The translations under genes and the position numbers were made by a program. From positions 1 through 64,000 of the forward strand of contig MEDY01000233.1 of assembly GCA_001724265.1 (NCBI GenBank): a stretch of 64,000 nucleotides of DNA, given 5' to 3'. Numbering within the stretch: position 1 is the stretch's first letter; each line of letters opens with the position of its first letter. The notes beneath the pieces were generated by a model, which saw nothing but the letters and a program-made list of their open reading frames with translations, did not search any database and was not told the DNA's origin. Shown here piece after piece: positions 15,387 through 48,200 of this stretch. This DNA comes from Rhizaria sp. SCN 62-66 (lineage: Eukaryota).

Positions 15387-16596
15387 ATGTCTTTCCTGCA
15401 GTCTATTATTAAGGGTGTTGGCGCCATCGGCCTCACCACCATTGCCGGCGTCTTCATCGCCCCCCAGGTCCTCTACACCAGTACGTCCCACCTTCGCCCC
15501 ATCTCAAGTTTCCTCTTCTCACGGACTCTAGCGCGACAAGACTTAGCTTAAACCAACTGTTGTTGGCACGCCACGATTGCCTCTGTGATTTTCTACCTTA
15601 TTCTAGCATATTATTTCGCGCACCACTCACATATCCCTCATATCACACTCTCTCTCCTAATCTTTCCCTATCTCGCCGCTGCAGTCCAACCCGGACACCG
15701 CGGTCTGATCTTCAACCGCTTCTCCGGTGTGACTGACGAGATCTACGCTGAGGGCCTGCACTGGCGCATCCCGCTAATTGAGTACCCGCGCATCATCGAC
15801 GTGCGCACGGCACCCCACATGATCATGACGGCGACCTCGACCAAGGACTTGCAGCAGATCTCGCTCTCGTTGCGCGTGCTCTACCGGCCCCGCGTCGAGG
15901 GCCTGCCCACCATGTACCGCTCGCTGCGCGCCGACTACGCCGAGCAGGTCCTGCCGTCGCTGGGCAACGAGGTGCTCAAGGCCGTCGTGGCGCAGTACAA
16001 CGCGGACCAGCTCATCACGCAACGCGACCAGATCTCGCGCGAGATCCGTGAGACGCTCACCTTGCGCTGCGAGAAGTTTAACATCCTCCTCGACGACCTC
16101 TCCATCACGCACCTGCAGTTCTCCCCCGACTTCACCAAGGCCATCGAGGAGAAGCAGGTCGCCGAGCAGCGCGCCGAGCGCGCCAAGTTCGTCGTCGCGC
16201 GCGCCGAGCAGGAGAAGCTCGCCCTCATCACTCGCTCGGAGGTATGTTCCATCACACATAATCTGAGATATCTCCGCGATATCGATGTCTATTTGGATAC
16301 GCTTTTATATTTGAAGATTATGTTCTGTCACTTTCCTTAAACCTTGATTTCATCACCATGCGCTCACATCTTGTATTTTATAACTTTTTTTCTCACTCCA
16401 GGGTGATGCCGAGGCCGCCATTCTCGTCTCCGATGCGCTTCAGAAGGCCGGCAACGGCTACCTGGAGATCCGCCGCATCGACACGGCCGTGCAGGTCGCG
16501 TCCACGCTGGCCACCTCGACCAACGTGACCTACCTGCCCTCTGTCGCCAGCGGCTCGCTGCCCCCTGTGCTCATGCTGCCCCCCAGCCGCAACTAA
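15387..16596 (+). CDS. PHB1: Prohibitin (PHB1-type, ~281 aa). Exons 15387-15480, 15685-16241, 16402-16596.
   Basis: PGHRGLIFNRFSGV, TKDLQQISLSLRVLYRP, VLPSLGNEVLKAVVAQYNADQLITQR, AIEEKQVAEQRAERAKFVV; exon 3 GDAEAAILVSDALQKAGNGYLEIRRID...NVTYLP. Both introns GT-AG and frame-consistent; TAA stop. Confidence 0.93.
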
Positions 16597-17235: not shown

Positions 17236-17615
17236 TCACTACTGGGCGGAGTTGACGCTGGCGCTCGCCGGCCGGCTGCCCTGCTGCATCTGCATCTTGG
17301 CACGCAGCGCAACCAGAGCGCGGGCCACGTGCGCGGGCGTCGGCGCGTTGCTGCCACCATCACCAGCGCTCATAGCCGGCTTGTTACCGCCATTATCATC
17401 ACTGCTACTGCTAAACGATTTGGCATTGTTGCTCGAGAGAGACAGCAGAGGCAGCAGCGGCGCGCGGGCCCTGGTGTGCGACTACGACTGTGCAGTGTTG
17501 CTGTTGTTGCTAGAGGGCGAGAGCAGAGAGAGCGGCCTCGATACCGCAGGCAGCGAGCGCGCGCCGTTGCTTGAGAACGCACTCTGTGCGACAGAGCTAG
17601 TCTTAATAGCCTTCG

Positions 17616-17665
<50 letters not shown>

Positions 17666-22446: not shown

Positions 22447-23283
22447 TGTAGGATGGTTCGGCGAGCGAAGCGCGGGCGATGATGAAGCGAAAAGGTCTAA
22501 CGGCTATCAACAAGTGGCAAGGCAGAAAGTGTGAGTGACCAAACCTAATTGAGGCTTTTACAAAATATTATTAAAAATACAAGTAATTTCTTCATTTTTG
22601 TTATCCGAACACTTAGTTTCAATTCATTTTGACGTTCCAGATCGTGGTATTATTGTTATTTAAAGTGCCGCTTCGTCAAAGTCAGATCGCGAGCAACGGC
22701 TACTGGCAAACACAAGGCCTCAGAAACAGACGTCAATATCGTCATACCACCTACTTCATAACCTGTGATGCATCTACATTGCTTTGCACCGTGCTTTTCA
22801 AACTGATTTTTTAAAATGAAAACAAAAGTGCGTTGTTTCACGACTGCAACAGCCTTCGGCGTGTGTCGCCACAGCGACCCCACTCCCACTCAGCCAAATC
22901 TGTTCTCTCCTATCAGCGCTACAAGACATTTGCTGATCCACGCGTAGCAGCTGTGTCTGATATTAATATGATGCCCTTAATATGCCATCGCTGTGTCAGC
23001 GACGAAATTGTTGATCAAAGCTGGTATTCGCGGCGTTTCTTCGCCTGGAAGGCGATGTGGTCGTGTTGTGGTGTTTTGAATAGCACCCCTCTCTTTATGA
23101 TCTCTATCTTTTGTCGAATCAAAAATGAGCGCACGATGGCATGTACTAGACTTCTTTCCATTACCCACTCTAACCACTCTCTCTCGGTACCCATTCTTCC
23201 TCCCTTCAACCTATCTTCCACAGTGTTGCAGCCCTCGCTCACGAAGTAGAAAAGCACTCTCCAAGCACGCCATTGCTTTACTG

Positions 23284-27212: not shown

Positions 27213-27754
27213 GCTTGATAAAAACACGACTAAAGAATCGACAAAAGGCCTCTTCTTCAGCGGCTGTCTCTTGACTGGCCGCGGTCGGAGGCCGCAGTCG
27301 CAAAACTGGGTCCTAATTTGAGCACCGCCAATTCGGGCCCCAATTTGACTGACCGTGCGATGATTGTGCTCACGGTCAACTGCAGCTCCAGCCAGTCGCC
27401 AACCGTTAGGAGATACCTTTCAGGCATTCGTGTTAGCTAAACGCTTCTGTATAAAATCTAATTTTGTAAAAATATATGTTGTTGTGATTCTCATATTGGC
27501 ATTGTATTTTTACGCCTAAACAATGATTGGGCCAGGTTGCTCCCAGTGTGAGAGACGGTTTGCTGAGTCCGAGTTACGAGCGCGCCCTTTTCGCACAAAC
27601 GCCATATCTAGCCCCCCATACCATCACCTAGTGAACATCAAATTGATTTATATCTCGTTTACATATCTTTTATCCCTGTTATCCGGGCTACACCCTGCCT
27701 CTGCTCTTTCTTCTTACCTGGCACAGCGTTCCCGCGCCCCCCTCTGGCTGCCCG

Positions 27755-30700
27755 ATGCCCCGCTTCGAGGCCCCCAGCAGCAGCGACGACGACGACGATG
27801 CCCTCCTCTTCCCGTCCGTCGCCGCGAACGCCCTGAGGCGTGCGCCCGCTAAGCTCGCGCCCATTGCCGCGCCCGCATCCACCTCGCGCCCTAAGCGCCG
27901 CCTCCGGTCCTCGCTCGCCGCCGCCACCGCCGCTGCCGCAGACGACGACGAGGACGATTACAACGGCTATGGTAACAGCGCCGCGAACGCCATCAGCCGA
28001 GCGCCCCTCGCCTCGCCGTACCGCGCCAGCAGCAGCAGCAGCATTGGTGGCGGCATGGGCGACAGCAGCGACCTCGACAACCACAACAGCAGCAACTACC
28101 CCCTCACGGTCACTGACGCTGGGGTCGACGCTGCTGAGGCCGAGGCCGAGGCCGTGACGGCCGCCGCCGAGGCCGCGACGCACGCGAGCGTCCGCGCGGC
28201 CGTGGCGACGGCACTGGCTTACGCGCAGCCCGTGCGGCCCCCGCCCCGCGGCGCAGGCTTCTCGCGCTTCTCCTCCTCCTCCTCCTCTTCCTCCTCGTAC
28301 AGCGAGAGTAGTAGAGTCGCAGGCGCAGTGCCCGCGCCCGTCTTCGTGCCCTCCGCGTCGGCTGCGGCCGCTGCCAGCGGCGCCGTTGCCGCCGCGGGCG
28401 CCCCGCGGGCCGCGCTGGCCGAGACGATGCGCTTCTCGTTCCGGCCCTGCTTCGGCCCCGCGGGCCTCCTCGTCACCCCGGTCCCCCTGCACAGCGCTCA
28501 CGGTGGCGCTCAGGGCGAGAGTGCGAATACGAACACGAGCAGCAACGCGCGCGTGGCGACGGGCATCGCCGTCGACTCCGTGGACCCCTTCGCCTACTTA
28601 GACGCCGGCAACAAGCCCTTACAGCACCTACAGCCCGCGCGCGCGCCCCTGACGCTGGCTCTCACTGCCACCTCCTCTTCCTCCTCGTCGTCCTCGGTCT
28701 CAGCGAACGCTGCGGCTGCGACAGCGAAGGCCAAGGAGGAAGCCCGCGAACAGTACGCCGACCTCGTCACGCGTCTGCTCACGGTCACCGCCTCGCTCCA
28801 CGACAGCGACTGCAACAACAACGACAACAGCACCAGTAGCAGCAGCACCAGTAGTAGTAGTAGTAGCAGTGCTGTAGCCGATTGCACCAGCGCCAAGTCG
28901 TTTGCGCAGGCCGCTAGCGCGCTGTTCGTGGCGCTGGCGCCGACCTTCGCGGCCGAGGAGCGCCGCGTGCACAGTGTCGGTGCCAGTCTAAGTACCCAAT
29001 TGGACGCCTCGTCGCAGGCGCTGCTGCCGAGCGAGCGCTACTCTCTGCCTTTGGCGCTGCAAAACGTGCTCGTGCTCATCCGTCTCCTCCTCCTCAACAA
29101 CAAGAGCAACAAGAACTCTGACGCTGACGCTGATGAGGCGGCTGCTGCCGAGGGGGAGGCGGAGGCCGCTGCTCAGGCCCTGGCGGCTCGCCGCGCGCTG
29201 ACGCAGTACTTGCGCCTCTCGTTGGCGGGCTACGCGCAGCACCAGCTGCTCTCTCTCCTCGCGCTCGTCTCCGGCACCGCCAACGCCAACGCCGGTACCG
29301 GTGCCGGTGCGGGCAGTGCTGTGGGCGGCGGCCTGACTTCTGCCTCCGCCTCCGAGGGCGGCTTAACTTTACCCCCCCTGTCCATCCTCGTCCCCGCGCT
29401 CGCCTCTGCCCTCAACAGCAATAACGGCAGCGCCAGTGGCGGCAGCGCGGCCTCGGTCGCCGCCGCCACCGTGTCGGCCGTCTCGCGCGCGATGGCCCTC
29501 TCGCCCTACCTGCCGCTGCTGGCGCCGCGCCTTGCCCTGCTCTCCTCCATGTCCACCGCCACCGCCAGTGCCAGTGCCACCGCCAAGGCCCGCGCGGAGA
29601 CGCGCGACTCGGCGCTGTCGCTGGCCGTCTGCGCACTGCGCGGCGCGCTGCAGCTGCCCGCGGCTGCGGACCTGGCCGCGCTGGCGGGGGCCCCGCGGCT
29701 GGCGCTGCTGCTGCTGGCGCCGCCCGGGGCCCCCGCGCTGCGCGGCCAGCTCGCCGACTGGCGCCACAGCGGCTGGGCCGACGCCGGCGACCCCGCACGC
29801 GCGCCGCTGTATGCACAACTCGCGGGACAGGGGCCCGTCACCGCCGCGCTCGCCGCGCTCGACAACTCCGCGCACCCGCGCCCGCAGTCTAACTCGCGGC
29901 CTCATAGTGAGGGGCCGGGGACAGCGCTGGCCGCCGTGAGCGCCGCTGGCAAGAGCAAGAGCGCCGCCGCTGCGGCTGCGGCCGTGGCTGCGGCGGTGGA
30001 CGCCTGTCTTAGCAGCAGCAGCAGCAGCAGCAGCAGCGGCGGCGGCAGCGGCGGCGGCGGCGGCGCGCTGGGCGCTGCCGAACGAGGCCTCGCCAGGGCC
30101 CACCACATTGCCCTCATCACCGACGACGACAGCAAGAACAACAACAACAGCAGCAGTGCGAGCGCGAGTGGCAGTGGCAGTGGCGTGTTGGGCATCGACT
30201 TGCGGCAGCACCCGCGCTCGCTGTCGTGGCAGCACGCGCTCGCCGCCCTCCTGCTCACGGCCACACCCTCCCCGGACGGTGGTAACAGCAACAACAAGGC
30301 GGCTGAGGGCGGCAAGGCGCACGGAGACGCCGCAACTTCGCTGCCGGCGCTGCTGAGCAGGTACCTGGACCTGGCCGCCGCGGGCGCCGCCGCGGCCCCC
30401 GCGCCCGCGTGGCGCCGCGAGTTCCCCGCGTGTTCTCTCCCCCTCATCAACACCCACGGCCGCTCTCACAGCGGCAGCGGCAGTGGCAGCGGCAGTGACG
30501 GCGAGGGTGCGGATGACGGCTCGAGCGCCGTGGCTGCGGTGGACGCGTCCTTCGCGCTGCTCTGCGTCTCCGCCCGCCTCCAGTCGCCCCCCGCCCCCGC
30601 CTCCGCCGCTGCGTCCGCCGCTGACGCCGCCGCCAATGCCGACTCACTGGCGCTTCCGTCGCTGCAGTGGGCCGCGGCGGCCGCGCTCGCGCCCGCGGCG

Positions 30701-32893
30701 CTGGTTCCGTCGCCGCTGCTGGCCACGCCCTCGTTCGCGCTCGCCTGCCTCCTCGCGCGCGCGCCGGAGCCCGCGCTGGCGGCGGCTGCGCGCGCCGCGG
30801 TCCCCGCGCTGGCCGCCGCGGCCACCGCCGACCTGGAGAGGGCCGGGCTGTGGCGTTGGGCCGTGCTCGTGCTCCGCAAACTCGCACACGGCACCTGTGG
30901 TACCCGTGCTGCTCACGGTCAGCAGATGATCGCGCACGGCGCCAGCCAGGGTAGCGGCAGCAGCAGCAGCAGCAGCAGCGAGGAGGCGGCGGCGGGCATC
31001 GTCGCGCGCCACCTGCCCTTGCTGCCCCTGCAGTCTCGGAGTGAGTCCGCCTCTCAGTCTGACTGCCGCGTGGCCGACTTTTTCGGTCCCGCGCTGCGCC
31101 CCCTTGTCCCCGCCCTCGTGCCCAACGGCAGCAGCGCCGACGGCGACTGCGACGACTGCGACGAGGAGACGGCCGACGCCGCGGCCGCGGGCGTGAGCTG
31201 CGGTTTTGCCGTTACTCTCGCAACCGTCGACTCCAACGGCAGCACTCACCCTCACAGTGATGACAGCTCTCGCTCTCGCGCCCGTGCAAGTGCGAGTACT
31301 AGCGATGGCGTTGCCGTCGGGGCTACTGCGGCACACAGCGGTGACTGTGGGCTGGTGACCGTGGGCGGCCGCGCCATGCCCCGCGGCGACGCCTTCCTGA
31401 TCGAGCAGTGCGGCCTAACTTCCGCTGAGCTCGACCTCGCGCGCGCGCGCAAGCTTCTCGCCGCCACCAAGAGCTCCTCCAGCGGCAGCAACACGATTGG
31501 TCTCGCGCTGCTGCACCTGCTGCAGGCTGCCGAAGTCAACGGTACCAACGCTTCTTCCGACGATGCTGGCTGTGACGGCGATGACTCCGACGCAGATGCC
31601 GACTCTGACGGCGTCGCGCGCGTCCCGCGCGCCGTCGCCGCCCGCGCCGAGGCGGGCGAGCGGGCGCTGCGGCTGTGGGCAGAGCGCGTGGCGCCCGCCT
31701 GGGTCCTCCGCGCCTGCGCCGCCGCCCCCGGCGCGCTCGCGAACAGCCTTGGCAGCAGCAACAGCAGCAGCAACAGCAGCAGCAGCGTTAACTGCGCGAG
31801 CGTGAACGCGAGTGCGAGCGCGGCGAGCGTGGTTGGCGCGGTGAGCATTGCGAGCTACGATGCTGACGCCACCGCCGCGGCCGCCGCCGCCTCCGCCGCC
31901 GCTGCCGCCGCGGCCGCGGCCTCCGAGCGCCTGCTGGCGCTTACGCTCACGCTGCCACAGCTGCAGCGGCCCCTCGCCCTCGCCCTCAACGCCCCCGCCG
32001 CGAGCGGCCGCGCGATGTGCGACAGCTCCAGCTCTGCCCGCGCGCGCGACACCCGCGGCTACGCTCACAGTGCGCGTGGCCGCGACGGCGCCGAGCCGTG
32101 GCGGCAATGGGCCGCGCTGGTGGCGCGGCTCTTCGCCGTGCGCGCCGACCTGGCCCGCTGGCTGCGCCTGCTCACCCTCCTCGGTGCCGAGTCCGCTCCG
32201 ACCGTGGGCGCGACAGCGAGCGCGGCCGCTGTCGCGCTGGGCGGGGCCGACTGGGGCCGGCTCGCGGCCGCCGCGGCGCGCGCGCGCAGCGGGCTGGCGC
32301 TCGAGGACCTGTCGGCCCAGGACGTCGCGCTGCTCGCGGCGCTGCACGCCACTCTCATCTCCGCCGCCGACGGCGACGTCCACGGCGACGTCCACGGTGA
32401 CGCCAGTGACGGCGAGATCCGCGACTACGGGTGGGGCGCGCTGTCGGCCTTCGCGTCCTGGAGCGCCTCCGCCTCCACCGCCGCCTCCTCCACCGCTGCG
32501 GCCGCCTCAGCCTCAGCCTCGGCCTCGGCCTCGGCCTTCGGAGTGCCCCGCGCGGCCTCGGCGGCCGCGGCGACCTCGACGGCGCGGACCGCCCGGACCG
32601 CGCTTCTGCTGGCGGTGCCGCCCGCGGCCGCCGTCGACGCGGGGCCCTGGGCCGTCCCGCGCGCGCTCGCGGCCGCCGCGGCGGGCGCGCTGGCCGACGC
32701 GAGCGCGTTCCTCCTCCCGACCGCCCATAGTAGCGAGGCGGGGGCGGGGGCGCTGGGGCTGCGCGCACGCGTGGCGCTGGGCGCGTTGGTGGAGCAGACC
32801 AAGGAGGTGGTCGTGCGGCTCGCGGGCCTCATGCCCCCTGCTGATGGCGACGAAGGCTACGGCGACGAGGGCTACGGCGACGACAGCTACTAA
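27755..32893 (+). CDS. NUP96: Nucleoporin Nup96-like protein, expanded by low-complexity inserts (1712 aa)
   Basis: Nup96-like blocks in the expected order: SFRPCFGPAGLLV; RLALLLLA...LRGQLADWRHSG; LSWQHALAALL; ADLERAGLWRWAVLVL; AFLIEQCGLTSAELDLARA. Acidic N-terminus; TAA stop. Confidence 0.72.
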   Translation: MPRFEAPSSSDDDDDALLFPSVAANALRRAPAKLAPIAAPASTSRPKRRLRSSLAAATAAAADDDEDDYNGYGNSAANAISRAPLASPYRASSSSSIGGGMGDSSDLDNHNSSNYPLTVTDAGVDAAEAEAEAVTAAAEAATHASVRAAVATALAYAQPVRPPPRGAGFSRFSSSSSSSSSYSESSRVAGAVPAPVFVPSASAAAAASGAVAAAGAPRAALAETMRFSFRPCFGPAGLLVTPVPLHSAHGGAQGESANTNTSSNARVATGIAVDSVDPFAYLDAGNKPLQHLQPARAPLTLALTATSSSSSSSSVSANAAAATAKAKEEAREQYADLVTRLLTVTASLHDSDCNNNDNSTSSSSTSSSSSSSAVADCTSAKSFAQAASALFVALAPTFAAEERRVHSVGASLSTQLDASSQALLPSERYSLPLALQNVLVLIRLLLLNNKSNKNSDADADEAAAAEGEAEAAAQALAARRALTQYLRLSLAGYAQHQLLSLLALVSGTANANAGTGAGAGSAVGGGLTSASASEGGLTLPPLSILVPALASALNSNNGSASGGSAASVAAATVSAVSRAMALSPYLPLLAPRLALLSSMSTATASASATAKARAETRDSALSLAVCALRGALQLPAAADLAALAGAPRLALLLLAPPGAPALRGQLADWRHSGWADAGDPARAPLYAQLAGQGPVTAALAALDNSAHPRPQSNSRPHSEGPGTALAAVSAAGKSKSAAAAAAAVAAAVDACLSSSSSSSSSGGGSGGGGGALGAAERGLARAHHIALITDDDSKNNNNSSSASASGSGSGVLGIDLRQHPRSLSWQHALAALLLTATPSPDGGNSNNKAAEGGKAHGDAATSLPALLSRYLDLAAAGAAAAPAPAWRREFPACSLPLINTHGRSHSGSGSGSGSDGEGADDGSSAVAAVDASFALLCVSARLQSPPAPASAAASAADAAANADSLALPSLQWAAAAALAPAALVPSPLLATPSFALACLLARAPEPALAAAARAAVPALAAAATADLERAGLWRWAVLVLRKLAHGTCGTRAAHGQQMIAHGASQGSGSSSSSSSEEAAAGIVARHLPLLPLQSRSESASQSDCRVADFFGPALRPLVPALVPNGSSADGDCDDCDEETADAAAAGVSCGFAVTLATVDSNGSTHPHSDDSSRSRARASASTSDGVAVGATAAHSGDCGLVTVGGRAMPRGDAFLIEQCGLTSAELDLARARKLLAATKSSSSGSNTIGLALLHLLQAAEVNGTNASSDDAGCDGDDSDADADSDGVARVPRAVAARAEAGERALRLWAERVAPAWVLRACAAAPGALANSLGSSNSSSNSSSSVNCASVNASASAASVVGAVSIASYDADATAAAAAASAAAAAAAAASERLLALTLTLPQLQRPLALALNAPAASGRAMCDSSSSARARDTRGYAHSARGRDGAEPWRQWAALVARLFAVRADLARWLRLLTLLGAESAPTVGATASAAAVALGGADWGRLAAAAARARSGLALEDLSAQDVALLAALHATLISAADGDVHGDVHGDASDGEIRDYGWGALSAFASWSASASTAASSTAAAASASASASASAFGVPRAASAAAATSTARTARTALLLAVPPAAAVDAGPWAVPRALAAAAAGALADASAFLLPTAHSSEAGAGALGLRARVALGALVEQTKEVVVRLAGLMPPADGDEGYGDEGYGDDSY

Positions 32894-33269: not shown

Positions 33270-35827
33270 TCACTCGGTCGCTGCCTCAGCGGCCGCGGCA
33301 GCAGAGGGCGCGGGGACGCGCTTGTGGATGTAGGCGGTGGCAAAGCCCCAGGACATGCGACAGCGGAGGGAGCGCACGGTCACGAGTCCAGGCCCCGGCG
33401 TGAGCTCGGTGGTGAAGGTGACCACGATCGCGCCCTCGCGCAGCGCGAGGCACATGCGTCCGATGCGCTCGATCATCTCTGCGCGCGAGAGAGAGTGAGG
33501 GGCAGAGCGGGGGGCATTGACATGATGCGATGAAGGAGAGGGAAAAGAAAAACAAAAGAAAGAGTAAAGCACAATGAGCTGAGTTTCAATATATCACCAA
33601 GAATTTACCATTCACATGCACTCTCGTGCTCTGTTTATGAGTTGCACGGACGAATCGTATACCGCACAAATGCATCCTGCCGTACCGTCGTCGAAGCAGG
33701 TCGAGTGCGCGAAGACCAGGTCCGCGCGCGACCATTGCGTCCAGTCGAAGAAGGAGCCGTGCACTACGGTCAGCTTGCTGCTGCTGCCAGGCCCGGTCTC
33801 AGTCCCGCTCCCGCACTCGTCCGCGCTCGCGCTGCTGCTGCTTCCACTCGCACTCGCGCTCGCGCTCGCAGCCGCGGTCGAAGACAGAGCTTCTAACTCG
33901 GGACCCTCGGCCTCAGCATCCTTGCTGTCGCCGCAGTCGCCGCAGTTGTTCTGGGGCGCGTGCGCGGCAGTGCTGACGGTGCTGACTGTGAGCGGGCACA
34001 GCGTGAAACGGCGGCCGCTGCGGCCACTGAGCACGCCCGCGCCCGCCGCGGCCGCCGCAGCCGCAATGCCGTCGTCGGCCGCAGCAGTGCGAGCGCGAGC
34101 GTCGATGTCGGTGGCGGCGACCATCAACTATAGAGCGAGAAAGAGTCAATACAAGACATTTCAAACAGTTATAAAAACAAAACGATGTCAAATACATCCA
34201 TTTGATTTCACAAAGTCAGTTTCTAATTGATATCCTCGTTGTTGCAAGTCAAGTCGATTCAGTTCAGCAGTTCTCCGTGATGCAGTCCAAGATGTGTGAC
34301 GTTTGCAGTGTGCCGCGTACCTGAGCGGTGGCGACGGCCTCGTGGTGGAGCCCGGTAAGGAGCTCGACGCCGATGAGCTCGGCGAAGTCGTGCAGCAGCG
34401 CCGCCGCCAGCACACCGCGGCCCGAGCCGGAGCCCAGGTCCACGAACACGCCACCCGCGGGCAGCCACGGCTACGGCGCGAACGAAGCGCAAAAATGATT
34501 AGAACAGCAAGATATTTCATATAAATGAGTGACAATAACAGAAATATTAACATAACAATTACAAACAAATTACGACTGTAACATAGTCTTTACTTAGGAC
34601 CTTATGTTAACGTCTATAGCGTCAAATATCGTAAATAAAAACTGTTTTCTTAAATGAGTGTCGTTAAAATAAAAAGCACTGACCTTGATGTCCCAGAGCA
34701 CGCGGGAGAAGGAGGGGAACTCGACCTCGCCGTAGACCAGCCCCTCGTGGCTCATCGCCGCCTTCGCGCGCTCGATCTCGCACTCGATCACCGCGGCGCC
34801 AGCAGCAGGCGCGGCCGTCGCAGCACCGGGCGCGGCCGCCCCAGCAGTGGCAGCTTCAGCAGCACCACCACCAGCGATGTCAGCAGTGTCAGCTCTCGCA
34901 GCAGAGGAGGCGGCCTTGCTCCCCTTTGCGCTGGCGCGCGCGCCGGCGCCGCGGGGGGGCTTGCGCGCGTAGATCTCGTTGCGCTCGGCGAGCGAGAGGT
35001 CCTTGGCGCGCGTCGTGGAGCACTCGGAGAACAAGATCTGCGGAGCGAGCGGGACATGAACAGGAAATTCAAGTTTCTCGTGAATATGTTGCTATTGTTA
35101 CATCTTTTTGCCACTGCACGCATGATGTATGGTCTAGTTCTACAAGAGTAATAACCGTTTTAAATTATATTTCAAGTGTTTAATTGCATGAATCATGACA
35201 AAAAGATTCTGAAAGAGTTAATATAAGCGATATCTTAGCGTTTTACGTACGTCCCAGCACTTGTTCAAGTGGGCGATCATTGTGGCCTCGCAGACCGCCT
35301 CCCAGCGCAGCCAAAGCAGCTCATAGCACTAACTCGCGGCCGCGCAGCTGCTTTCAACGCTTGCAGTCGCAGCGGGGTCCGCAAGAGCGCCCGCGGGCGA
35401 TGTTGTGGCCGTTGCGGCGATAGTCGAGGCAGGGAATGCGACAGCGGCTGCTGCTTCGGCCGCAGTTGCAGGGAGATTGTCGGCCTCTGCGGCAGACAGG
35501 AGCTCTGCAAGGGCCGCGGGGGTCGTCACCACGTCTGTGTTGATGTGTGTGACGAGCAGAAAAAGTTGTAAAGGTGAGGGTTCGATCGAGAAGCGTGAGA
35601 AAGCAAAGGACGTCGAGGACCTTACAGTTGCTGAAGCAGCGAGGAGCAGGAGTTAGCGACGTACGGGAGAGTGCGTTGAAGCGAGCGGTGTCACGGGAGG
35701 CTAGAAAATCGCACAAGAGAGCGAGTGTGGGGCCATAACGCGCAATGGCAGTGACAGCGGCGGTTTCCGCGGAAGCCGAAACAGCCGGCGTCGCGGTTGC
35801 GGGGAGGAGGACCGCGGCGGCGCTCAT
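33270..35827 (-). CDS. DOT1-like class I SAM-dependent methyltransferase (~546 aa, one in-frame TAG at 35331-35329). Exons 35827-35626, 35534-35251, 35037-34684, 34470-34321, 34127-33686, 33478-33270.
   Basis: GLVYGEVEFPSF, motif I VFVDLGSGSGRGV, LIGVELL, HGSFFDW..ADLVFAHSTCFDDEM, LREGAIVVTFT, MSWGFATAYIHKR. Five GT-AG introns with consistent phases; TGA stop. Exons 1-2 are less certain than the catalytic exons. Confidence 0.82.
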
Positions 35828-36469
35828 CGAGAGAAATGGGGTCAACTCAGATCGTCTTAAGTTGAAATAAAGGTATTACAAGTATCGTATACCTAGCTAA
35901 TGTCTTTTACGGCTTATTTTCCGTCAAATGGCAATTTGACACGGCAATCAACCTGTTTTTATCGTCCAGCCACGACTCTCATTGCAACGCCCTCGGGAAG
36001 GACATGCAACGAAGCACTACTTGCTGCATCTGTAATGACTGCCACAATCCGTAGTTAGCGTTGGATCCCGTGCAAGATGGATTTTCGCTTTCTTTTTTTC
36101 TTTATTTTATATAATTTTTCACTCAAAAGCTTTGTTTTCATCTTCAAACACGCGTTTTACGTGAGGACCTTCTTATCCCACCAACCCCACGTGGTCCATT
36201 TTACTATTCATCCGTCGCTGACCATAATAGTCTTTGCATTCTCTTGTGCTTCCACGTTTATTTGATTTTCCTTTGTATATTCTCTCGTTAATCTTTGCTT
36301 TTATACTCACAACATGAAAAAATCACTTGCATTCTGGCCCTGGACAGGCTTCCCCCCTTCAACAGCTCTTTCCCCGTTGCTGCTGTCCGCCTCCCCCGTT
36401 CCCCCACCTCACCGCCTCCCACGCCCCCACAGCCCTGCCCCTTGTGCGCCCCGCTTTTTCTACTACCCA

Positions 36470-37216
36470 ATGTCTTCCCTGCGCGCCCCCGAGCATCCGT
36501 TCCCGTCGCTGTCGTCGCTCTCCGCGCCCGCCCAGGCGCTGCTGGCGGCGCACTCGTGGCCCGGAGAGCCTACGGGCACGGTGTTCCTCGACCGCGCGCA
36601 CCTCATCGAGGCCGCGGGCGACTGGGAGTTCGCCGCCGAGCTGCTGACGGACATGCTGGCCGAGCTGGCCACGGCGCTGCCCGCGATCGAGGACGTGGCC
36701 TTCCTGGGCGGCAACTGCGACTCGACGCTCGACACCTCAATGCCCACCTCGGTGCGCGCGCTCTCGCAGGCCGACGCCGCCGCGCTGGGCAAGACCGCGC
36801 ACGGGCTCAAGGGCGCCGCGCTCAACCTCGGCCTGCAGCAGTGCGCGCGCGCCGCGCAGGGCGTCGAGCTCATCGGCAAGACCCTTGCCGAGCGTGCCGC
36901 CGCCGCGGGAGGGCAGTGGGAGAGTATTGACCAGGGTACGCCAAGACAGACCAAAACATTGAATGAGCTCTTTATGCCGAAGATTAGTATCTAGTGTTGT
37001 TAATTTGAGATATAGCTATATATTATGTATATATTTGCAATATATCTCACTGTAATGTTTTATCTTGTTTTCTCACCATTTATGTTCTCTCGTATTCGCT
37101 CTTTATTCCTCAAATCGCCAGAGCTCTTCTCGCTGCTGCCGCCTCTGTGCGCCCGCCTGCGCGCGCTGCACATCGACCTGCAGACACTCGTCGAGGCCGG
37201 CTTCCAGAACGAGTGA
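36470..37216 (+). CDS. Stand-alone histidine phosphotransfer (HPt, Ypd1/AHP-like) protein (~186 aa). Exons 36470-36935, 37122-37216.
   Basis: LDRAHLIEAAGDWEFAAELLTDMLAEL helix, then phospho-acceptor motif AHGLKGAALNLGLQQCARAAQGVE. Phase-1 intron 36936-37121; TGA stop. Confidence 0.85.
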
Positions 37217-37479
37217 GCTCCCGCCCCGGGCCCGCCCAGGCTCTTGCACGCCTGCACGCCTGGGCATGGCACGCCTGGGCACGCCAGTGGACGCGGACGC
37301 GGACGCGGACGCGCGCGCTGGCTGCACTCAGGTGTGCAGCTCGCGTGTGCCGCCCACGTGTGCCAAGAGAGAGAGCGCCTGGAGCGTCCTCTCTTCGCTC
37401 GCTGACTCGTCGAATAACGACGAGTGGGTGACGCCCCTCGGTCTGTGACCTGACCTGCGCTGTCCGCCAGTCTGCCGCC

Positions 37480-37528
37480 GCATCGCGCATCGCGCATCGC
37501 GCATCGCGCATCGCGCATCGCGCATCGC
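37480..37528 (+). repeat. (GCATCGC)7 perfect heptanucleotide tandem repeat downstream of the HPt gene
   Basis: Direct reading of seven consecutive GCATCGC units. Confidence 0.9.
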
Positions 37529-38455
37529 ACGTCGTGCGGTGGCGGCGGCTGACGACTGCTGCGCTGCGCTGCTGCATCGGGCACTCGGCGACCGGGAGGT
37601 GCGCTCTTACGCACACATGCGAATCGCACACAAGTGTTACCTATGTCCGTCCGTGTGGCTTTGTGTGGGTGCATGTTGTCTGTGTCCTCGTGTCTAGGAG
37701 GGCTGGGTACGCCTCCGCGGCTGTGTAGGACAGCGGTTAACCGTGATTTACTATGAAGTTAACTTCTGTCTGTCACTGACGTGATTCCTTTTTTGACGGT
37801 CTTCTCTCTTCTTGTGTGTGTTTGTTTGTCTTTTTGTTTAATGTTGTCAACGACGCACTTCACACTCCGACTTATAGTGTGGCTTTTACTTTTACTACTA
37901 CTCTTACTACTGCGAGTACCAATTGACTGTGTATGCTCTCGAAATACGACATGCGTGTACGGATATGGCTTAATGATTTTTTCAAGAAACGCAAAAGAAA
38001 TGAAGCTTTTTTTTGGTACACAAAACACTAAGTATTCGACTTGTGCGTGTGGCAATGACATGTCACAAGTGCACGCGTCGACTCGTACACGCATCATTAT
38101 CACTTATTCGCATGATTATCTTGTTTTTCTCTGTCTCGTTCGTAGCGCTTGTATGCAATGAGTTTGGTTGCACGCAAGGATAACTAAAGCAAGGTCTTTT
38201 TTTATTCGTCTCCACAACTACATATCTGACAACTTAACGATTAGCTTATTACAATTAAGAATAATTCTCACCGCTACAACAATTTCAACATCCAATAAAC
38301 AATTTTCGTAATCATCTCCAGCGACCACAGGCTGCAATACGAGAGTGTCAAAAATTAAGAGATCGTGCCTGTGCGCTCGTTGTCTGTCGTGGACAGCGCG
38401 CGAGCGCAAAAAAACGGTGTGCCGACGTACATGTGGGGGGGCCAAGCAGTCGTGG

Positions 38456-38474: not shown

Positions 38475-38475
38475 G

Positions 38476-38547
38476 CTCTCTGACCGGGAATTGAACCCGG
38501 GTCTCCTCCGTGACAGGGAGGAATACTAGCCACTATACTATCAGAGA
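38476..38547 (-). tRNA. tRNA-Asp(GUC), 72 nt, intronless
   Basis: Minus strand TCTCTGATAGTATAGTGGCTAGTATTCCTCCCTGTCACGGAGGAGACCCGGGTTCAATTCCCGGTCAGAGAG. Acceptor stem TCTCTGA/TCAGAGA, A-box TAGTATAGTGG, anticodon stem CCTCC/GGAGG with loop CT-GTC-AC, B-box GGTTCAATTCC, discriminator G. Confidence 0.95.
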
Positions 38548-39296: not shown

Positions 39297-42200
39297 ATGA
39301 GCGCGCATTGCGTTTTACGAGTATCCAGACTCGTCCACACCTTCTTTGCGACGTGGGCTCTGCTCCTCGCCACTCTCAGCTCCCCCAGCACAATATTCTC
39401 CGTCAATGCCCGTACGTCGCTCAATTCTCTCTATATACCGGTTATATGAAGGAAAAATGCCTTTTGTGGGAGTATATCCCGCTTTCAATCCCAGAATGTG
39501 CGATTTACCCCTTAACTCACACTATATCCATGATGTCCGGACTATTCCCTCTCCACTTCGTCACTCCCACTCCTCTTCTCGCTCAACCTCCGCGCCGTGC
39601 CCAGAACTCTTGACGGACCCTCCGTCACAGGTCAGCCATATCAGTGGCGCGACTGTGAGCGCGGATGCGTTTCTGGGCACGACGACGTGCTTAGTGTCGC
39701 ACCTCTACACGCGTTCTGGCGAGAACGTCGACAACTCTCTCCGCATCACGCTAGTCGGCTTCCTGGGGCTAGGCCTCGTCGAGCGCTCGGGGCCCAGTCC
39801 GCGGCTGCTGGTGCACGAGCGGCCAATTTGGGGCGTCGATGCTGGAGCCACGTCAGCGTAGCATAGCGTGTTCAGCGGAGCGGTCTATAACAACACCTCG
39901 GCAGACAGCAACTACGAGTCGACTTGCACCGTCCAGTCGGGCAGTGCAACTGTGACGGCCTCGCTTGCGTACAAGGCGGAGCTGCATACCGACAACATCA
40001 ACTGGAACCGATGGCTGGAGATCAAGAGTGACACCCCCGACGGAGGCTTCATGAAGGACTTGCAGAACCAAATGCTCGCGAGCAGCGGGCGCGTCAATGA
40101 AGACTCACTCTCGCTCATCATCACGTGTTCTGTACGTCACACAAAGTTAATTATATTTTTATCCATGATACTAGGATGATTTCGATTTATATGGCAGTCA
40201 TTACATGGTAAAAGTTTAAGAATCCTCCGTTTTACACATTTTTCATCTTACAACTCTTTCTGACAAACTCTTATGGTTATCTTAATTTACAGGGCTTTTC
40301 GTATACGCGTGCGAAGATGATGGACATGCGCATGATGCGCGTTGCCTTTGACTATGGCGGCACACTCGCAGCCGCAAACACCGGCTGCGTGTACCAGCCT
40401 CCGCCGACGCAGCGTCTATACGGCAACCCAATCGCGACGGTCACGCCTCCTGTAGTCACAGCAACGCCCGGTGAGTACGAGTCGTTTATCGCGGTAACGT
40501 TTGTTGCGACATCGTTCTTCTTGCCCGTCACGGACCCGCTGGAACTTGTGCTTATGCTCAACGGCCTTAAGTTCACGAAACACAACGCACTGGCGTTAGC
40601 GGGCGACGAGTGCACTCTGACGCACGGCACCACGGCGTACGTCAACGCCAACGCTGGCGGCGGCGCGACGGAGACGATCGCATTTACGCCGCTGTCAGTC
40701 GCCACTACGGCGCAGGTGCCGCATATTCTGCGTTGCCCAATGCGCGGCGTGCCCACAACGCGCGCCAGCTCCGCATTGGCGAATTCGTTCACGCTCGCGC
40801 TCACTTCGGGCGCGGGGGAAGTGCTGACCACCACCGTGGCCGACAACGCCTTCACATCAGGCTCATTAACGGCACACGTCGCCGCATGCACGCCCTACGC
40901 CGAAGACGGCATGATGGGATCCTGCGTGCTAATTGCAACGCTGTCTACGGCGCCAGCGTTTGTCGTGGATAAGGTGTTTCTGTCCCCAACGTCCATGTCA
41001 AACTCAACCACGGGCAACTTTGCCAACCTGTCTCTCTCGCTCACTTTTTTTGATCCCGTGACGGGTGACTCGGTAAATGTGCCGTCGTCGTACATTTGGG
41101 CTAACAGCGGCGAGTGCGAGGCGTTGCTTCCGGCCGGTTCGGCCGCCAAGTCCATGGGCACCAGCATCCTGATCGGCACTCTCCACAACTTCCCCGTGGT
41201 CACGACGGCGCTGTCGGATGAGATGTCAACGATCTCCTACGCCGTCTTTGGACATCAGCCCAACGTGAACTCGCTTATGCAGGAGTTTGAGTACACAACC
41301 TCGGTCAACTTGCGCACAGCGGGCTCCAAACTCGCAATAGGAGAGGCGCCCGCCCTCGCGTTTCACTACTGGGCCTACGCGACGGCCATGCCGACACCGT
41401 GCGTGCTTGCGCTTATCCTGACCAACGTCAACAATGCTGCCAACGCTGATGTGTTCGAGGTTGAAAACGCGTATCAAGTCTTCAAAGAGCTGAATGACTT
41501 GACGTGCGTTGCCACGTTTCCGGGAGGCACCACCGAGACCTTTGACGTCGGAAGCGGGATCACGCTGCCAACCGCGGGCGACACATCACTGCGTCTCAAG
41601 CTTAATCTTGGCGGCAACACGCTCCTCGATTTTGGCGGCGCTGTGCTTGTCAAGTGCACAACTTCTATGGACGCACTGCTGGAGAACCCCGATGAGTATG
41701 CGGCGTCCGCTGCACGCATGCACGTGCTTGGAGCAGACGGCGTGACTCGCGCAGGCACAGTACTTGAGTACCCGCTCAGCGCCGACGCGCGGCCCGGCGT
41801 TGCAACGACGACGTGGGATGACTGCACAGGCACACAGCGCGTGGCTAACATAATCGTCTCGGGCCCAGAGGCTTTGTTCCCAAACAAGAACCAAGTCGTC
41901 TCCCTGGCGCAGACGAAGCACCGCTATTCAGCGTATTACGGCACGGACTTTGAGTCGATAGCGGTTGCAGGCGTATCTTTCTCATGCCTGCTTGACAGTG
42001 TCACAGGTTCCACTATGCCTACGGCACTGAGCTTGAGCGTAAGCGTGCCATATGTCGGGCAGCTCAACATTAACACGCTGAGTCAGGGACAAACATGCCT
42101 GCTATTGCATGTGCGCCTTGTCTTTACACAAATCGCTGCGTTTATTAATACGTGTCACGGCGCTCTCTTTGTGCGCTCAGTCTTTGTTGGCTTGAAATGG

Positions 42201-45200
42201 GGTGTTTCTGAGCTGCTGAGCTCTGAGACGTACCGTAACGTGCGTCCGCCAATCGTGCAGTGGGAGAAGTCGCCGCTACCGTCACCCCTTTACAGCGCGT
42301 CGCCCCTGATTAACACGCTGACCGTTATCTATGTCACTGCTGACCGGTGGGAGGATCCCAATCTGAACTTTTTAGTCCCAAGCCTCTGGACACTATCATC
42401 AGCATGCACAGTCACTTACACTTGGCTGCTTAAGTCAGGCAGCGCCTTGCAGACTCTCACTAACACGCGTACAATTGCGCAGGTCTCCGCAGCCGCCATG
42501 ACCGCCAGCACACAATTTCAAAACGACAAGTCCGGCCTGCCAACCGTTGCTGGCACACTTAATGCGTTCAATAGCTTCCGGCTGCACATGAAGCTGATGT
42601 GTACTGTCGTGTCAACGCCCCATACGCAGTTGTCACTGCAGTTTGGTCTGGATGCCACTCAACGTGTGTTTGTGCCGCTTGCACGCGTCCCGTGGGCCGC
42701 ACTTAAGGTCTTTGCGCACACAGACTACTCTCGATTCGACCCTGTAACGGGCACAAAGTCTGAGGTCGCAAAGCTTCTCACACCCATAGAGCTCAGGGTC
42801 TGCGTTGCGGGCAACTATTACGAGGACTACACGCAGCGTTGGGCGCAGGAAATTGCAACACAAGGCTTGAACGCGGCATATGACGCGATTTTTGTTGTTA
42901 CGCCGCCTTCATCTACAATGTCTCTAATTGCGAACTCAAGTTATACGCACACCACTTCTGCCACCGCTGTTGTCTACGCACTGCCCCCACTAACCGGCAC
43001 ACTAGCCGCAAACTGGCTTGATATGGATTTGCAGCCGCGCATTGAGTTTCGCGGTTCTGGTTGGATCCATCTTGCGGTGGCGGTGAACATTTCCTCAAGT
43101 GTGACAAACTTGCTCGAAACAAGTATCTTCATCCAGGCTACATGCTCGCTCGCTCTTTTTACCACTGCGCTTGCGACGACTACAGGCACACCTGTTGTTG
43201 CGGTGCCGTCGCCCGCAGGCTCCGGCGACGAGTGGCCCGTAGGCTCAACCATCACGGCAAGTTGTGACACTGGTTACTCCTTTGACGGCACCATCTCAAC
43301 CATAGGCGATTACAGTTTCACGTGTAGTAGCTTTAACGTTTGGACTTCCACGATAGGCACACTTAGCACCTGCGTGCGCGTGCCAGTATGTCTCCAAAAG
43401 TCGTTCGGTGCGGGCGTAGTAACTCCGACAATGCAGGATATGGATAGTCTTGATGCTATAACTACCGCCAGCTGCGATGATGGCTACACGGCGCGCGATG
43501 ATCTTCCGTCATCCGCGATCTACAAGTGCACGCAGACGGGTTCTGATGAGTACAATTGGAGCCTTGACGTCAATGAGATTGCAATTGTGTGTGTTCCACA
43601 CTGCATTCCAATTGCAGACTATGACCCAAACATTGACACAGTTATCTACTCCGGCAACGGAGAGCCTGCACTGTACAACGTTGCTACGGTTACAAGCTGT
43701 GCAACAGGTTTTATGATAAACCCAGTGCTATTGGCGCTGCAGTGTGAGCTGGATCAGCTCATAAACTCTGCGTGGTCTCAGCCCGCATCGTACATAGCTG
43801 ACAGCGTGTGTCTTCGTGTTGCTTGTCCGGTGCCCTTTGTCGACAGTACAGGCACCGTGTACACGTACACGTTCAACTCCACCACGCTGACCGGCACACC
43901 CACAGCCTTTGCCGAGACCACTGCGGCTGCTGTCTCGTGTCTGCCCGAGTATGAACTTCCCACGGGCGGCGTCTACAGCACAATCTGCGACGTTGCAGGC
44001 TGGGCTGACGCCGCACTCACAATGTGCGTGCCCAAGACGTGCCCCGAGTTCCCGCTCACGGGCTACAGCAACGTCGTTGCCTCAGGAACAACATCTGTGG
44101 TTGGTGATGAGTTCAGACCGGTCTGCGAATAGCACTGGGTTGCGCCCAACGATGACAAGGCCGTGTACACATGTGAGCTCAAGGGCGATCTTTCAGCTGA
44201 CTGGCGCGAAAACGCCACTGTAACGCCGCCAGTGTGTGTTGAAGGATGTGCGGCTCTGGAAGTGCCCATTGGTGGGAATTGGCAGTTCATAAGCGGTTAC
44301 AGCAGCGGCACGGTTCCAACAGTTGGCGCGACGGCCAACATTGTTTGCGACTACGGGTACACACTTGACCCACCGCTCGCGGTCGCGCCGCCCGTTTGTG
44401 TTGACAATGGGGATGGTACGCGTTTGTGGGACCGCGATGGTAGCAATGAGTGCGTTGAGGCATGTCCACAGGCGCCGCCGCAGTCCAACACACTTTTTGG
44501 CGTGTGGATCAACGATGCCACGAGTGCTGTGATGAATTGGTCTGTTGCAGCACCAGTTGGCACCCAAGTCATTCTGACGTGCTTGCCAGGCTACGCAGTC
44601 AACGGTATTGACGGTGACTATACGATTCAAAGCACGTGCCTGCAGGACAAGACGTGGAGCACAGCTAACAGTGTGGATGTATGCGAGCCCCGTACCTGCC
44701 CGCTCTACGCGGCAGACGCGTCATTTGAGTCATTCACCACAGTGCTTGTGCTTGGTGCCACCGCAAGTGTGGTTTGTGCAACTAACTTTATTTCGCTCTC
44801 GGAACACGCGAGTGCAATGGTTGAATGCCGCGTTAGTTCCGCGGACAATGTGACAATGGAAAACGTTGTCACCAACGTCGAAGGCCTGCCTACTTGCGTG
44901 CCGCAGTGCCCTGCGGTGACAATGGGGTCTAACTGGCTGAACATGAGCTATTCCACCGGCACTTACGCAACCGAGGGTGCTGTCCTTAATATCTCCTGCA
45001 AAAGCTCGTTTGTGCTTGATCCCATGCTGGATACGTATCAATGTTCCATGGTCTCTCCAGGTGTCGTTGATTGGAGCCCCTCAGGCATCTCGAACATTGA
45101 CCCTTGTATCGCGGGCTGTTCACCACCAGTGCGCGCAAGCACAACAGTGGTTGAATATTACCAGAGCGGCAGTTCTGACCCGGTCACTCTCGAAGGCTCA

Positions 45201-48200
45201 GGCACCTATGTGCCCATTGACACCGAGGTTAAATTACGTTGTCTGTCGGGCTTTGCAGTTGATTCTGTTGCTGGTGCAGGCAACTACACTGCGGTTTGTA
45301 CTTCGCTCGGCGTTGGTCTTGGCGCAGAATGGTCAGATGAGTCTGCAGTCCCTGCTTGTGCTCCCACGGCGTGCGCTGCACTTGAAGCCAACACCACAGC
45401 AAGCAATACCATTGCCGTTCAAACAGGGTACGTGGTAGGGCAGACGGCGGAGTATGTGTGCGCGCCCGACATGTTCCGCGTGAGTGGTAACTCCAAGCGA
45501 AGCTGCTCTATTCCAGCTGACTACAATGGGGCGGAATGGGAACTGCTCTATCCACTCGAAGGCGAACTTGAGTGTATGCCGCAGTGCGACGCGCTTGTGC
45601 CGACAAATGCATGGAGCTTCATTTCGTATAGTGTCGCCGAAGTAGGAGACCCACGACTCCCAAACATTGTGGCAACGCTCTCGTGCGGTCCTGAACATCA
45701 ATTAAGCCACGATGCACCAGAGAAGCTCACATGTATTGTGCCAGACCCTGTCAACGCGCCTTTAATTGTGGCCTGGTCTGCGGTTGTTGACACTGCGACA
45801 TGGCTTGCCGGTGCATGCCAACCCACGTGTCTTGGCGCGCCGTCGTCATTGGAAGCCCCAGGATCCCAGTTTGTCTTTACGTACTCTTCAGACGGCTTGC
45901 CTTCGCCCGTGAGCGAGCGCTATACTGTGGGTGTTGTCGCGGAGCTGACGTGCGACTTGGGCTACGACGTCAATGGTGAAATGGGCACGAAGATTGCTGA
46001 TACAATCTGCGTTGATGGCTCCCCACCAACATGGATTGACGAGCTCGCGTGTGTTCCGCGCACGTGCAATCCGTTTAGTCCACCTACAGGAACCCTGACG
46101 GATGCTGACCAAGTCATTCCTTACACACTTGGAATGTCAGTAACGGTTACGTGTGATGATGGGTACAAGCCTTTGATGTCCGGACATAACGGAATATCAA
46201 CTGCAGTGTGTGCGGTTGACACGTCAAGCGAAGAGCTTTACTGGGCGTATCCCGAGATTGGGGTGTTTCCCTGCGTGGCTGTGTGCCCCACGCTAACCAT
46301 GCAATCGACATGGGACTGGGTTGATTATGAGACTTAGTACGCCGACGGTGTGCTCAACTTTGGCTCGGTTGCCCTCATTACGTGCGCAGAAAACTATACT
46401 TTGCACGCAGATTTGATAGCCGCGCCGCCCACGTGCATCTTTAATGACGACCCCGAGACAAATCCTCCTGAAGCCATCTGGTCGCGAGACAACGTGTGGC
46501 TTGACCAGAACGCGTGCGTTCTTAACGGCTGCACGGAATCTCCTGTTGCTGGAGCTAACGTACAGTCTCCTGGTGAATGGTTTTACACGCTTGCTGGGAA
46601 CGCTTATGTCGCTCCAGTCGCTCCTGACAATCTGTTTTTCGCTGGCGTTGTCGCAACACTCCAATGTCAGCCCGGTTACGAGGCATCAAAGCACGAAGAT
46701 GCTGCCGTATCGACTTCCGAATGCTTTGTTGACTTCTCTCAGTCTCCAGCGGTGGGTGTGTGGAGCCCCACGGCAACGTGCAAAAACTCTATCTGTGCAG
46801 ATCCAGCGTTACAAGTGCAGCAAAACCATCTTGTGTACACCACCGAGACTGAGAACTTGGTGGCCTTACGTACCACAGGCTTGCTAAGCTTTGATAGCGT
46901 TGTTGTTGAATGCGACGTTGGTTACGCGAGTGCGGCTGCGTCAAAGTTGAGCTACACGTGTCAGCCTAACATTGACGATCCTGATCAGCTCGAGTGGGTT
47001 ACTATGGTAAATGCTGAGGTGCCTGTCTGCGAGGTCGCAGGCTGTCTCCCAATTGAGAGCTTGCTGCCTGGTTATATCTTCGTTGCCAGCTACTCGCAGC
47101 CACAGGACAACGAAACGCGCTATCCCGTCGGCACAGTCATTTCTTTTTCATGCGCAAGTCCAATGGTGCCTGCACCCGCGCCAACTGCAGTGACATGCAT
47201 CAGTGACGCAGCTGCGCCAGGGGGGTCTCGTTGGAGCGCGCAGCCGAGTGAGATGCTGTCGCTCTCATGCGCAAATAGGTGCATAATTGCTGAGCTTGGC
47301 GGCTTTGCAAACGCGGAACTTCTAGATACAAGCAACACAGTCTTGAACCGCGACGTAGTGGAGATATACGCAAGCGAGCAGAACGTATATACCGTACGCT
47401 GCAACACGGGCTACGCCTTTGCGGCAGATCCTACGGCTGGTGTTTGGAGCAGCACTGTGCGCTGTCAAAGCACCGGGTGGGAGGCTGTAACAGGCCTTGC
47501 ACAAGTCGCAGATTGTGCGCCACAGCTGTGCCCTCAGCTGACGACGGATCCGACGCTGACTGCAAACGTGACATATCCAGCGGTGTATCTTGTTGAGGCA
47601 TCATATACGTGTACCGAGAATTTTTACGACACAAGTATTCGTGCTGGAGCCGCCGTGCCATTCAAGTGTGACGTGGTAGATCCTGTGGCTAATATTGCTG
47701 CGTGGATACAGCAGGACGCTGGTCCACTACCTACGTGTGTGCCACAGTGTCCGCTTCTTGCGTTCTCTGATGCACTCTTATTGCCATCTTACAGCAGTGC
47801 TTCGCGAACCGACGGCACGACTATGGCGCTTTCTTGCAACGCGCCTTTCTTAATCCGCAACTCAATTGCTGAGCTTAATATTGTCTGTGTTATCACTAAC
47901 GATGTTGCGGTGTGGACCCCAAACCCGCAGCAGCACGTCAATGTCAGCACTGCGTGCCTTAATTTGTGCGCGTTGTCTGGCCTCCCAAGCGCAGCCGGAC
48001 TTGAATGGGACGCTCTTGCTCTTGAGAATGATGATAAGCCAGGGTACTTTGCTACTGATGATGGCTTTATGGCTTCTTGCAGTGACACTACTCAGGCTCT
48101 TAAGGGAAGCACTAAAGGCACGTTTGAAATGACCTCGACAGTGCTTTGCGCCGGTTATCCTGCTGCCTGGGCCTTTACAAGCGCCAGTCCTACAATTGAG

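Follow-up and report, generated by a model that had tools for sequence, protein, structure and literature searches.

Whether a TAG triplet inside a coding exon ends translation or is read through is the question raised by a gene in a 64,000-nucleotide (nt) stretch of DNA from Rhizaria sp. SCN 62-66 (contig MEDY01000233.1, positions 1 to 64,000; hereafter the window). The gene lies on the minus strand at 35827-33270 and, judged from its sequence, its product is a DOT1-like methyltransferase dependent on S-adenosylmethionine (SAM). Its six exons join into 1602 nt, which amounts to 533 codons followed by TGA, and the sole internal stop in the joined exons is a TAG, codon 123 (35331-35329), located inside exon 2. 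Six in-frame TAGs were found in the window, distributed over four genes; past each of them the coding signal goes on, and TAA or TGA interruptions were absent from the window's confident coding open reading frames (ORFs). The reading that we favor, with somewhat better than even confidence, is that UAG is translated throughout the organism, either by full reassignment or by context-dependent leakiness, and that the methyltransferase gene gives rise to one 533-residue protein. UAG would then not terminate translation in this organism, or only poorly, and UAA and UGA would be the stops.

The TAG in exon 2 of the methyltransferase gene

An earlier reading of this DNA, made from the letters alone (the sequence-only reading), had bounded exon 2 by a CAG acceptor at 35535 and a GTACGT donor at 35250 and had argued that its phases, 1 in and 0 out, force the frame through the TAG. 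The coordinates and the peptide proved correct, the forced frame was recovered on the joined model, and both the gene structure and the in-frame TAG are confirmed. Exon 1 (35665-35827, 163 nt; all features of this gene are on the minus strand) opens with the ATG at 35827-35825, the first ATG of its frame, and ends in phase 1. Intron 1 (35535-35664, 130 nt) extends from GTACGT to the CAG acceptor at 35537-35535; GTAAGG, 39 nt further on, is a possible alternative donor with the identical phase. Exon 2 (35251-35534, 284 nt) is entered in phase 1 and left in phase 0. Within it the TAG (35329-35331) stands in the context AGT TAG TGC, and the reading that follows is CYELLWLRWEAVCEATMIAHLNKCWD|ILFSEC. 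No ATG precedes the TAG in the exon 2 frame (ORF 35329-35652); the first one after it (35280-35278) encodes Met140, which would be the start under the standard code and is the point from which homology to the family becomes detectable.

Several ways of splicing around the TAG were considered and rejected. Use of the TAG itself as the acceptor of intron 1 leads to an immediate TGA (C+TG CTA TGA), as the sequence-only reading had said. Skipping of exon 2 leaves exon 3 out of frame, and 3′ of the TAG there is no AG positioned for phase 1. Excision of TAGs as tiny introns would call on surrounding GT..AG spans of 5-14 nt, compared with 130-213 nt for the real introns. All five introns of the gene are of the GT..AG type and AT-rich, with a GC content of about 0.35-0.5, and the exons have a GC content of 0.62-0.71.

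The remaining exons carry the methyltransferase domain. Intron 2 (35038-35250) is AT-rich and runs from the donor GTACGT (35250-35245) to a CAG acceptor. Exon 3 (34684-35037) contains the conserved blocks LFSECST..LAER and LVYGEVEF with an Ala-rich insert in between, exon 4 (34321-34470) the SAM-binding motif VDLGSGSGRGV within the region matched to the Pfam DOT1 family (PF08123), and exon 5 (33686-34127) a ..VFAHSTCFDD motif at its 3′ end. Exon 6 (33270-33478) closes with the TGA terminator at 33272-33270; it shows 65% identity to the homologue P0005, and L001 is identical to it.

Four of the five splice junctions are backed by homologues or by a cDNA contig. Across the junction between exons 2 and 3 (..HLNKCWD|ILFSECSTTRAKDLSLAER..), a profile built from 76 N-termini of the family matches residues 139-170 with 28.3 bits (E 1.9e-07 at Z=1436). 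P0005, the closest relative and a protein of 337 residues, gave a single colinear BLASTP match to the spliced model over model residues 151-519 (E 1.2e-77), and this colinearity over exons 3 to 6 confirms the three junctions that join them. Run X8 moreover has a cDNA contig that lacks intron 4, with 34127 joined to 34321. Exon 3 matches the family with an E value of 2.9e-06 among 1436 ORFs, and a polyA RNA contig lies over 34727-34954. A further X8 contig (35724-35892) covers part of exon 1 together with 65 nt upstream of the ATG at 35827. The junction between exons 1 and 2 has no outside support, and no RNA junction for intron 1 was seen in the RNA contigs listed. A contig from the polyA RNA run X5 (33529-33806) passes unspliced from exon 5 into intron 5, so that this library also contains pre-mRNA or DNA of the organism. 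A scan of metagenomes for orthologous loci returned only a 1805-nt contig, identical to the 3′ end of the window and without exon 2.

The N-terminus of P0005 deserves separate mention. Within its residues 1-25, the stretch ..LPRPLPPSLQ precedes ALFASC and resembles a translated polypyrimidine tract followed by a CAG acceptor; intron 2 is thus probably conserved in the organism of P0005, as far as can be told from the protein. Since P0005 begins in this intron-2-like sequence (..PPSLQ|ALFASC), it is uninformative on exon 2. Introns 3-5 are missing from the P0005 gene call.

Assignment to the DOT1 family rests on several matches. Queried alone, exon 4 scores 22.8 bits against PF08123 (E 7.6e-05), compared with a cut-off of 23; P0005 (36.6 bits) and P0016 (57.6 bits), with which the window protein aligns colinearly, both exceed this cut-off. 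A search with exon 6 of 1.84 billion representative proteins gave 11 matches at E values up to 0.001, P0005 being one of them; exon 3 searched against longer proteins gave no match, probably because Ala-rich words swamped the search. The DLGSGSGRGV, LVYGEVEF, STCFDD and MSWG blocks are features common to the window protein and DOT1 methyltransferases. What sets it apart from the family is the presence of long Ala-rich inserts and an N-terminal part of 138 residues that matches no family member. A structure has been solved for the family (9ne1_A), and of the 120 homologues listed, 10 carry an organism label, in each case that of a stramenopile.

According to the sequence-only reading, all catalytic motifs downstream of the TAG look intact. 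This holds for the SAM-binding motif, which was aligned in all nine homologues, and does not hold for the Asn of the xNSTCF motif. At this position the window protein has a His (VFAHSTCFDD, 33700-33720 on the minus strand), which it has in common with P0005; the other aligned homologues have Asn (8/8). The solved structure reads INSS at the corresponding xN(N/S) motif, with Asn, where the window protein reads AHSTCF. We take the Asn of this motif, which follows strand 4, to have a catalytic role in DOT1L. The occurrence of the His in two diverged sequences points to a trait of the lineage and not to decay.

In-frame TAGs and terminators across the window

Two of the six in-frame TAGs lie in giant gene A, an intron-free ORF of 4866 codons (40212-54812, plus strand). 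Under the standard code it falls into three ORFs of 1306, 734 and 2824 codons, all in the same frame and separated by TAG only, and all three parts score as coding in the codon model. The first TAG (44130-44132, plus strand) is situated between the second and third Cys of a four-Cys module and the second (46335-46337, plus strand) inside a repeat module. A repeat profile from which the TAG-bearing modules were left out runs across the second TAG, matching residues 2023-2092 with an i-E value of 3.6e-06. Both TAGs are kept in a second sample, X4, which is about 0.3-0.5% diverged from the window; the two X4 contigs that cover them show 4+4 differences, none on a TAG, with the first TAG near a contig end. 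The identity of these two TAGs in an independent sample excludes assembly error for them. As to its architecture, giant gene A contains numerous divergent four-Cys modules resembling Sushi repeats, a GPS motif (residues 4138-4176) and, toward the C-terminus, hydrophobic stretches, and its GC content at third codon positions (GC3, 0.51-0.64) is far below that of neighboring genes.

In giant gene B, the TAG (56799-56801, minus strand) is followed by 244 coding-like codons (78-88 bits) up to a TAA at 56066-56064, which is also where the GC-rich block ends. The gene at 17236-22503 has a TAG at 17482-17484 (minus strand) with 80 coding-like codons behind it (36-87 bits), and it ends in a tandem TAG TGA (17236-17241, minus strand) directly followed by AT-rich DNA. 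A 78-nt GC-rich intron at 17412-17489 (minus strand, GTCGTA..TTTAG) that would excise the TAG at 17484 in frame was not adopted, its donor and composition being unlike those of the AT-rich introns. A candidate seventh in-frame TAG occurs at 39859-39861 (plus strand, followed by C) in an ORF at 39301-40179 with a weak coding signal of 10-21 bits. It is situated in a GC-rich block just upstream of giant gene A, where X4 has a 9-nt in-frame deletion at 39724.

The 13 terminators in the window comprise 8 TAA, 5 TGA and no TAG. Eleven belong to genes with an unambiguous first stop, and each of these genes ends in TAA or TGA; the other two are the stops behind a read-through TAG and are not independent, which makes the reasoning partly circular, and the sample is small. 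For the gene ending at 4140 the true end was used, as the stop at 3774 is intronic.

The base that follows the codon (position +4) differs between the two classes. A pyrimidine comes after each of the six in-frame TAGs (T at 35328, C at 44133, T at 46338, C at 56798, T at 17481 and T at 17238), compared with a pyrimidine at 39% of first codon positions among about 11,750 codons (P=0.0037). Terminators are followed by a purine in 10 of the 13 cases and by a pyrimidine in 3 (Fisher P=0.0031 against the in-frame TAGs), and four of them read TAA-GC. With six sites, this bias is suggestive of decoding and termination competing at UAG. The claim of the sequence-only reading that TAG is decoded is backed by the window as a whole: TAG occurs in frame six times across four genes, none of the terminators is a TAG, and two of the TAGs are kept in X4.

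The surrounding genes are ordinary eukaryotic ones and include an SDR+SCP2 enzyme, an MBOAT acyltransferase, a prohibitin-like Band 7 protein and a Nup96-like nucleoporin. None of those at 1536-4142 (plus), 5377-7239 (plus), 8577-10740 (minus), 15552-16340 (plus) and 27647-32893 (plus) has an in-frame TAG. The neighbor of the methyltransferase gene on the opposite strand (36266-37740, plus) has a histidine phosphotransfer (Hpt) domain at 24.5 bits, compared with a Pfam cut-off of 24.6, and probably an intron at about 36942-37111. The runs in which the window was found are metagenomes of bioreactors, wastewater and activated sludge.

Start of translation and competing explanations

The codon model was used to ascertain which parts of the methyltransferase gene have the statistics of coding DNA. 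In exon 1 the frame that leads into the TAG is favored by 29-34 bits, the part of exon 2 before the TAG favors by 13-48 bits the frame that continues into the domain, and downstream of the TAG the reading frame is favored over shifted frames by 14-18 bits; intron 1, which served as a control, has no coding signal. The edge of the GC-rich block lies 14 nt upstream of the ATG at 35827, a distance that falls within the -60 to +118 nt observed relative to first ATGs in 10 other genes. Translation would accordingly be expected to start at this ATG, and if TAG is translated at all in the organism, ribosomes starting at 35827 read into the domain. The upstream part would be translated jointly with the methyltransferase domain. 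The product would be a single protein of 533 residues composed of a lineage-specific N-terminal part, made of exon 1 and an Ala-rich linker from exon 2, and the DOT1-like domain. Two proposed correspondences to the family in the upstream part, exon 1 (LALLCDFLASRDTARFNAL) as the family helix LKELILRRDPRL and Trp132 as the family's conserved Phe 16 residues before the W..LF motif, were unsupported by profile and BLASTP.

A number of observations weigh against translation through UAG. The six TAGs are all that occur in about 12,000-17,000 codons, and none of the six sites is a conserved column: the TAG of the methyltransferase gene is at the edge of the Ala-rich linker, and those of giant gene A align with variable repeat positions. 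No amino acid can therefore be assigned to the codon. Pfam Sushi matches extend across neither of the TAG-bearing modules of giant gene A. UAG would be read either by a cognate tRNA with a CUA anticodon or by a near-cognate one in a weak termination context; a tRNA(CUA) was not found in the window, whose sole tRNA is a tRNA-Asp(GTC) at 38475-38547 (minus strand). Depth over the latter in metagenome runs is far above that of its surroundings, presumably due to identical tRNAs of other organisms. A gene for eRF1 was likewise not found within the window.

Further points of this kind concern the start of the methyltransferase gene and are at the same time the case for a standard code, or for an exceptional transcript. 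Translation would start at the ATG at 35280 (MIAHLNKCWD...), and exon 1 together with the first 204 nt of exon 2 would make up a spliced 5′ leader whose upstream ORF (uORF) of 122 codons ends at the TAG; alternatively, transcripts would begin within exon 2. The sequence-only reading had named this start as what would refute it, and the family profile indeed aligns from residue 139/140, exactly the Met of this ATG. Exon 1 scores 0.4 bits on the family profile, and forced ungapped extension over residues 124-138 gives -9.1 bits, a lower value than that of 73% of random peptides from the window. Against the 136 family proteins used, BLASTP with residues 1-138 as query found nothing below E=2. The homologue P0030 starts at the corresponding position, although the contig that encodes it is 906 nt long. 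Before the TAG, GC3 is 0.67 (exon 1) and 0.61 (exon 2), compared with 0.81-0.92 in exons 3-6, and among the RNA contigs listed (X5 and X8), exon 2, the junction between exons 1 and 2, and every TAG are uncovered. The upstream coding signal opposes such a start, all the more as the upstream ORF is in the frame of the main ORF, from which it is separated by 16 codons without a stop. A uORF of 122 codons would strongly hinder scanning to the main ATG. A spliced GC-rich leader of 290 nt would set this gene apart from the 10 other gene starts, at which the edge is no more than 118 nt from the ATG, and the X8 contig over exon 1 and its upstream 65 nt indicates that exon 1 is present in that library. 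The internal TAGs of three other genes would also be left unexplained. We regard a downstream start as rather improbable. The TAG of this gene is nonetheless not fully independent of the giant genes as evidence, contrary to what had been claimed for it, since taken alone it is compatible with the standard code and a long ORF upstream of the main one.

If the code is unchanged, the TAGs might instead be repaired or circumvented in the RNA, A-to-I editing of UAG to UGG being one example. Editing of premature UAG stops to UGG is known in some filamentous fungi. It would explain why only TAG is tolerated, the six sites having the U-A-G context by definition. The only A>G differences in X5 are at 38793 and 42917; both are strain differences common to X4, and neither is at a TAG. 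No T>C was reported for the minus-strand gene in X5, in RNA contigs that do not cover the TAG sites. Editing would affect four of about 14 genes, far above the fungal cases, and would leave unexplained both the absent TAG terminators and the pyrimidine bias at +4; we give it little credence. That the TAGs are genuine nonsense mutations, in genes disabled recently or in nonsense alleles, or else assembly errors, has a similarly slight probability in our estimation; the methyltransferase gene would in that event be a young pseudogene. TAG is the commonest outcome of random nonsense mutation, since in random substitutions with the codon usage of the window 2.5-2.8% were nonsense and 51-53% of these were TAG. 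The differences from X4 after the first TAG of giant gene A also look unconstrained, with 3 synonymous and 5 non-synonymous (neutrality P=0.39), which weighs against translation of this part; before that TAG, 14 are synonymous and 3 non-synonymous (P=7e-06 against neutrality), and the two ratios differ with a Fisher P of 0.061. Against decay, all five of the internal interruptions, which affect four of about 14 genes, are TAG, for which chance gives 0.53^5 = 0.04, and none is a frameshift. Decay is unlikely because pseudogenes should gather frameshifts well before five nonsense codons, and frameshifting indels are common in the non-coding DNA compared between window and X4 (3 of 6 indels were not multiples of three), whereas about 5.9 kb of giant ORF showed no indel. 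Behind the first TAG of giant gene A, 3558 codons are open, and for both of its TAGs the agreement of X4 excludes an assembly error. The methyltransferase gene is transcribed and spliced, and both X4 differences within its exon 4 are synonymous. The X4 contig over its TAG (34947-36420) has five differences from the window, at positions not listed.

UAG as a sense codon in other nuclear codes

Very few nuclear codes are known in which UAG is the only stop codon turned into a sense codon, the accessible parts of the reports naming a rhizarian, a fornicate and some ciliates. If UAG is translated in the window organism, its code, with UAG as sense and UAA and UGA as stops, is probably a further case of this known class. 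It would mean that such a code arose independently once more, here in a free-living organism encountered repeatedly by several studies in samples from wastewater and bioreactors. No relevant report of nuclear UAG reassignment in stramenopiles was found in the literature, as judged by titles and the opening lines of abstracts. There is also a practical consequence, in that gene calling with the standard code would split or truncate genes: the 4866-codon gene would be called as three pieces and the methyltransferase would lose its first 139 residues.

The closest parallels are described in the portion of one study that is available (PMC5304391). In Rhizaria sp. exLh, UAG encodes Leu and UAA and UGA are stops, with 384 UAG in 71 genes and gene ends of 56 UAA and 15 UGA; in Iotanema spirale, UAG encodes Gln and UAA and UGA are again stops, with 204 UAG in 126 genes and ends of 104 UAA and 15 UGA (PMC5304391). 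The window resembles both, as far as they are described there, in that only UAG occurs inside coding sequence and genes end mostly in UAA, otherwise in UGA and never in UAG (8 TAA and 5 TGA in the window). In contrast to both, UAG is far rarer in the window, with its six occurrences in four genes, and the organism is a free-living eukaryote of wastewater with GC-rich exons. The pyrimidine after every in-frame TAG is a feature of the window that was not seen described for exLh or I. spirale in the accessible text (PMC5304391).

Among ciliates, going by the available sections of the reports, reassignment of UAG only is found in phyllopharyngeans (PMC11687900), and there are species in which UAA and UAG have different meanings (PMC10553269). 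On that account, UAG is uncoupled from UAA in these ciliates as it is in the window. The AT-rich introns of 130-213 nt, the GC-rich exons and the very large genes of the window are unlike ciliate macronuclear DNA.

In Condylostoma, Parduczia and Blastocrithidia, the same codons act as stop or sense depending on context, as set out in the accessible parts of two papers (PMC4967479; PMC5304391). The window departs from these codes in that no TAG terminator was found in it. It may resemble them in that the pyrimidine at +4 after in-frame TAGs, set beside the usual purine after terminators, hints at termination still competing at UAG. The low frequency of TAG together with the strict following pyrimidine could reflect capture of a stop codon at such a stage. 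In this more specific form of the favored reading, which is possible and at present doubtful, an uncultured wastewater eukaryote, maybe a stramenopile (judged only from the named members of the methyltransferase family), would be at an early or intermediate stage of capture: UAG would be a rare sense codon tolerated only before a pyrimidine, a weak termination context, with release factor competing, and UAA and UGA, usually followed by a purine, would do all the terminating. If so, the window would come from a new UAG-only lineage, one that illustrates in nature how reassignment can proceed through an ambiguous intermediate.

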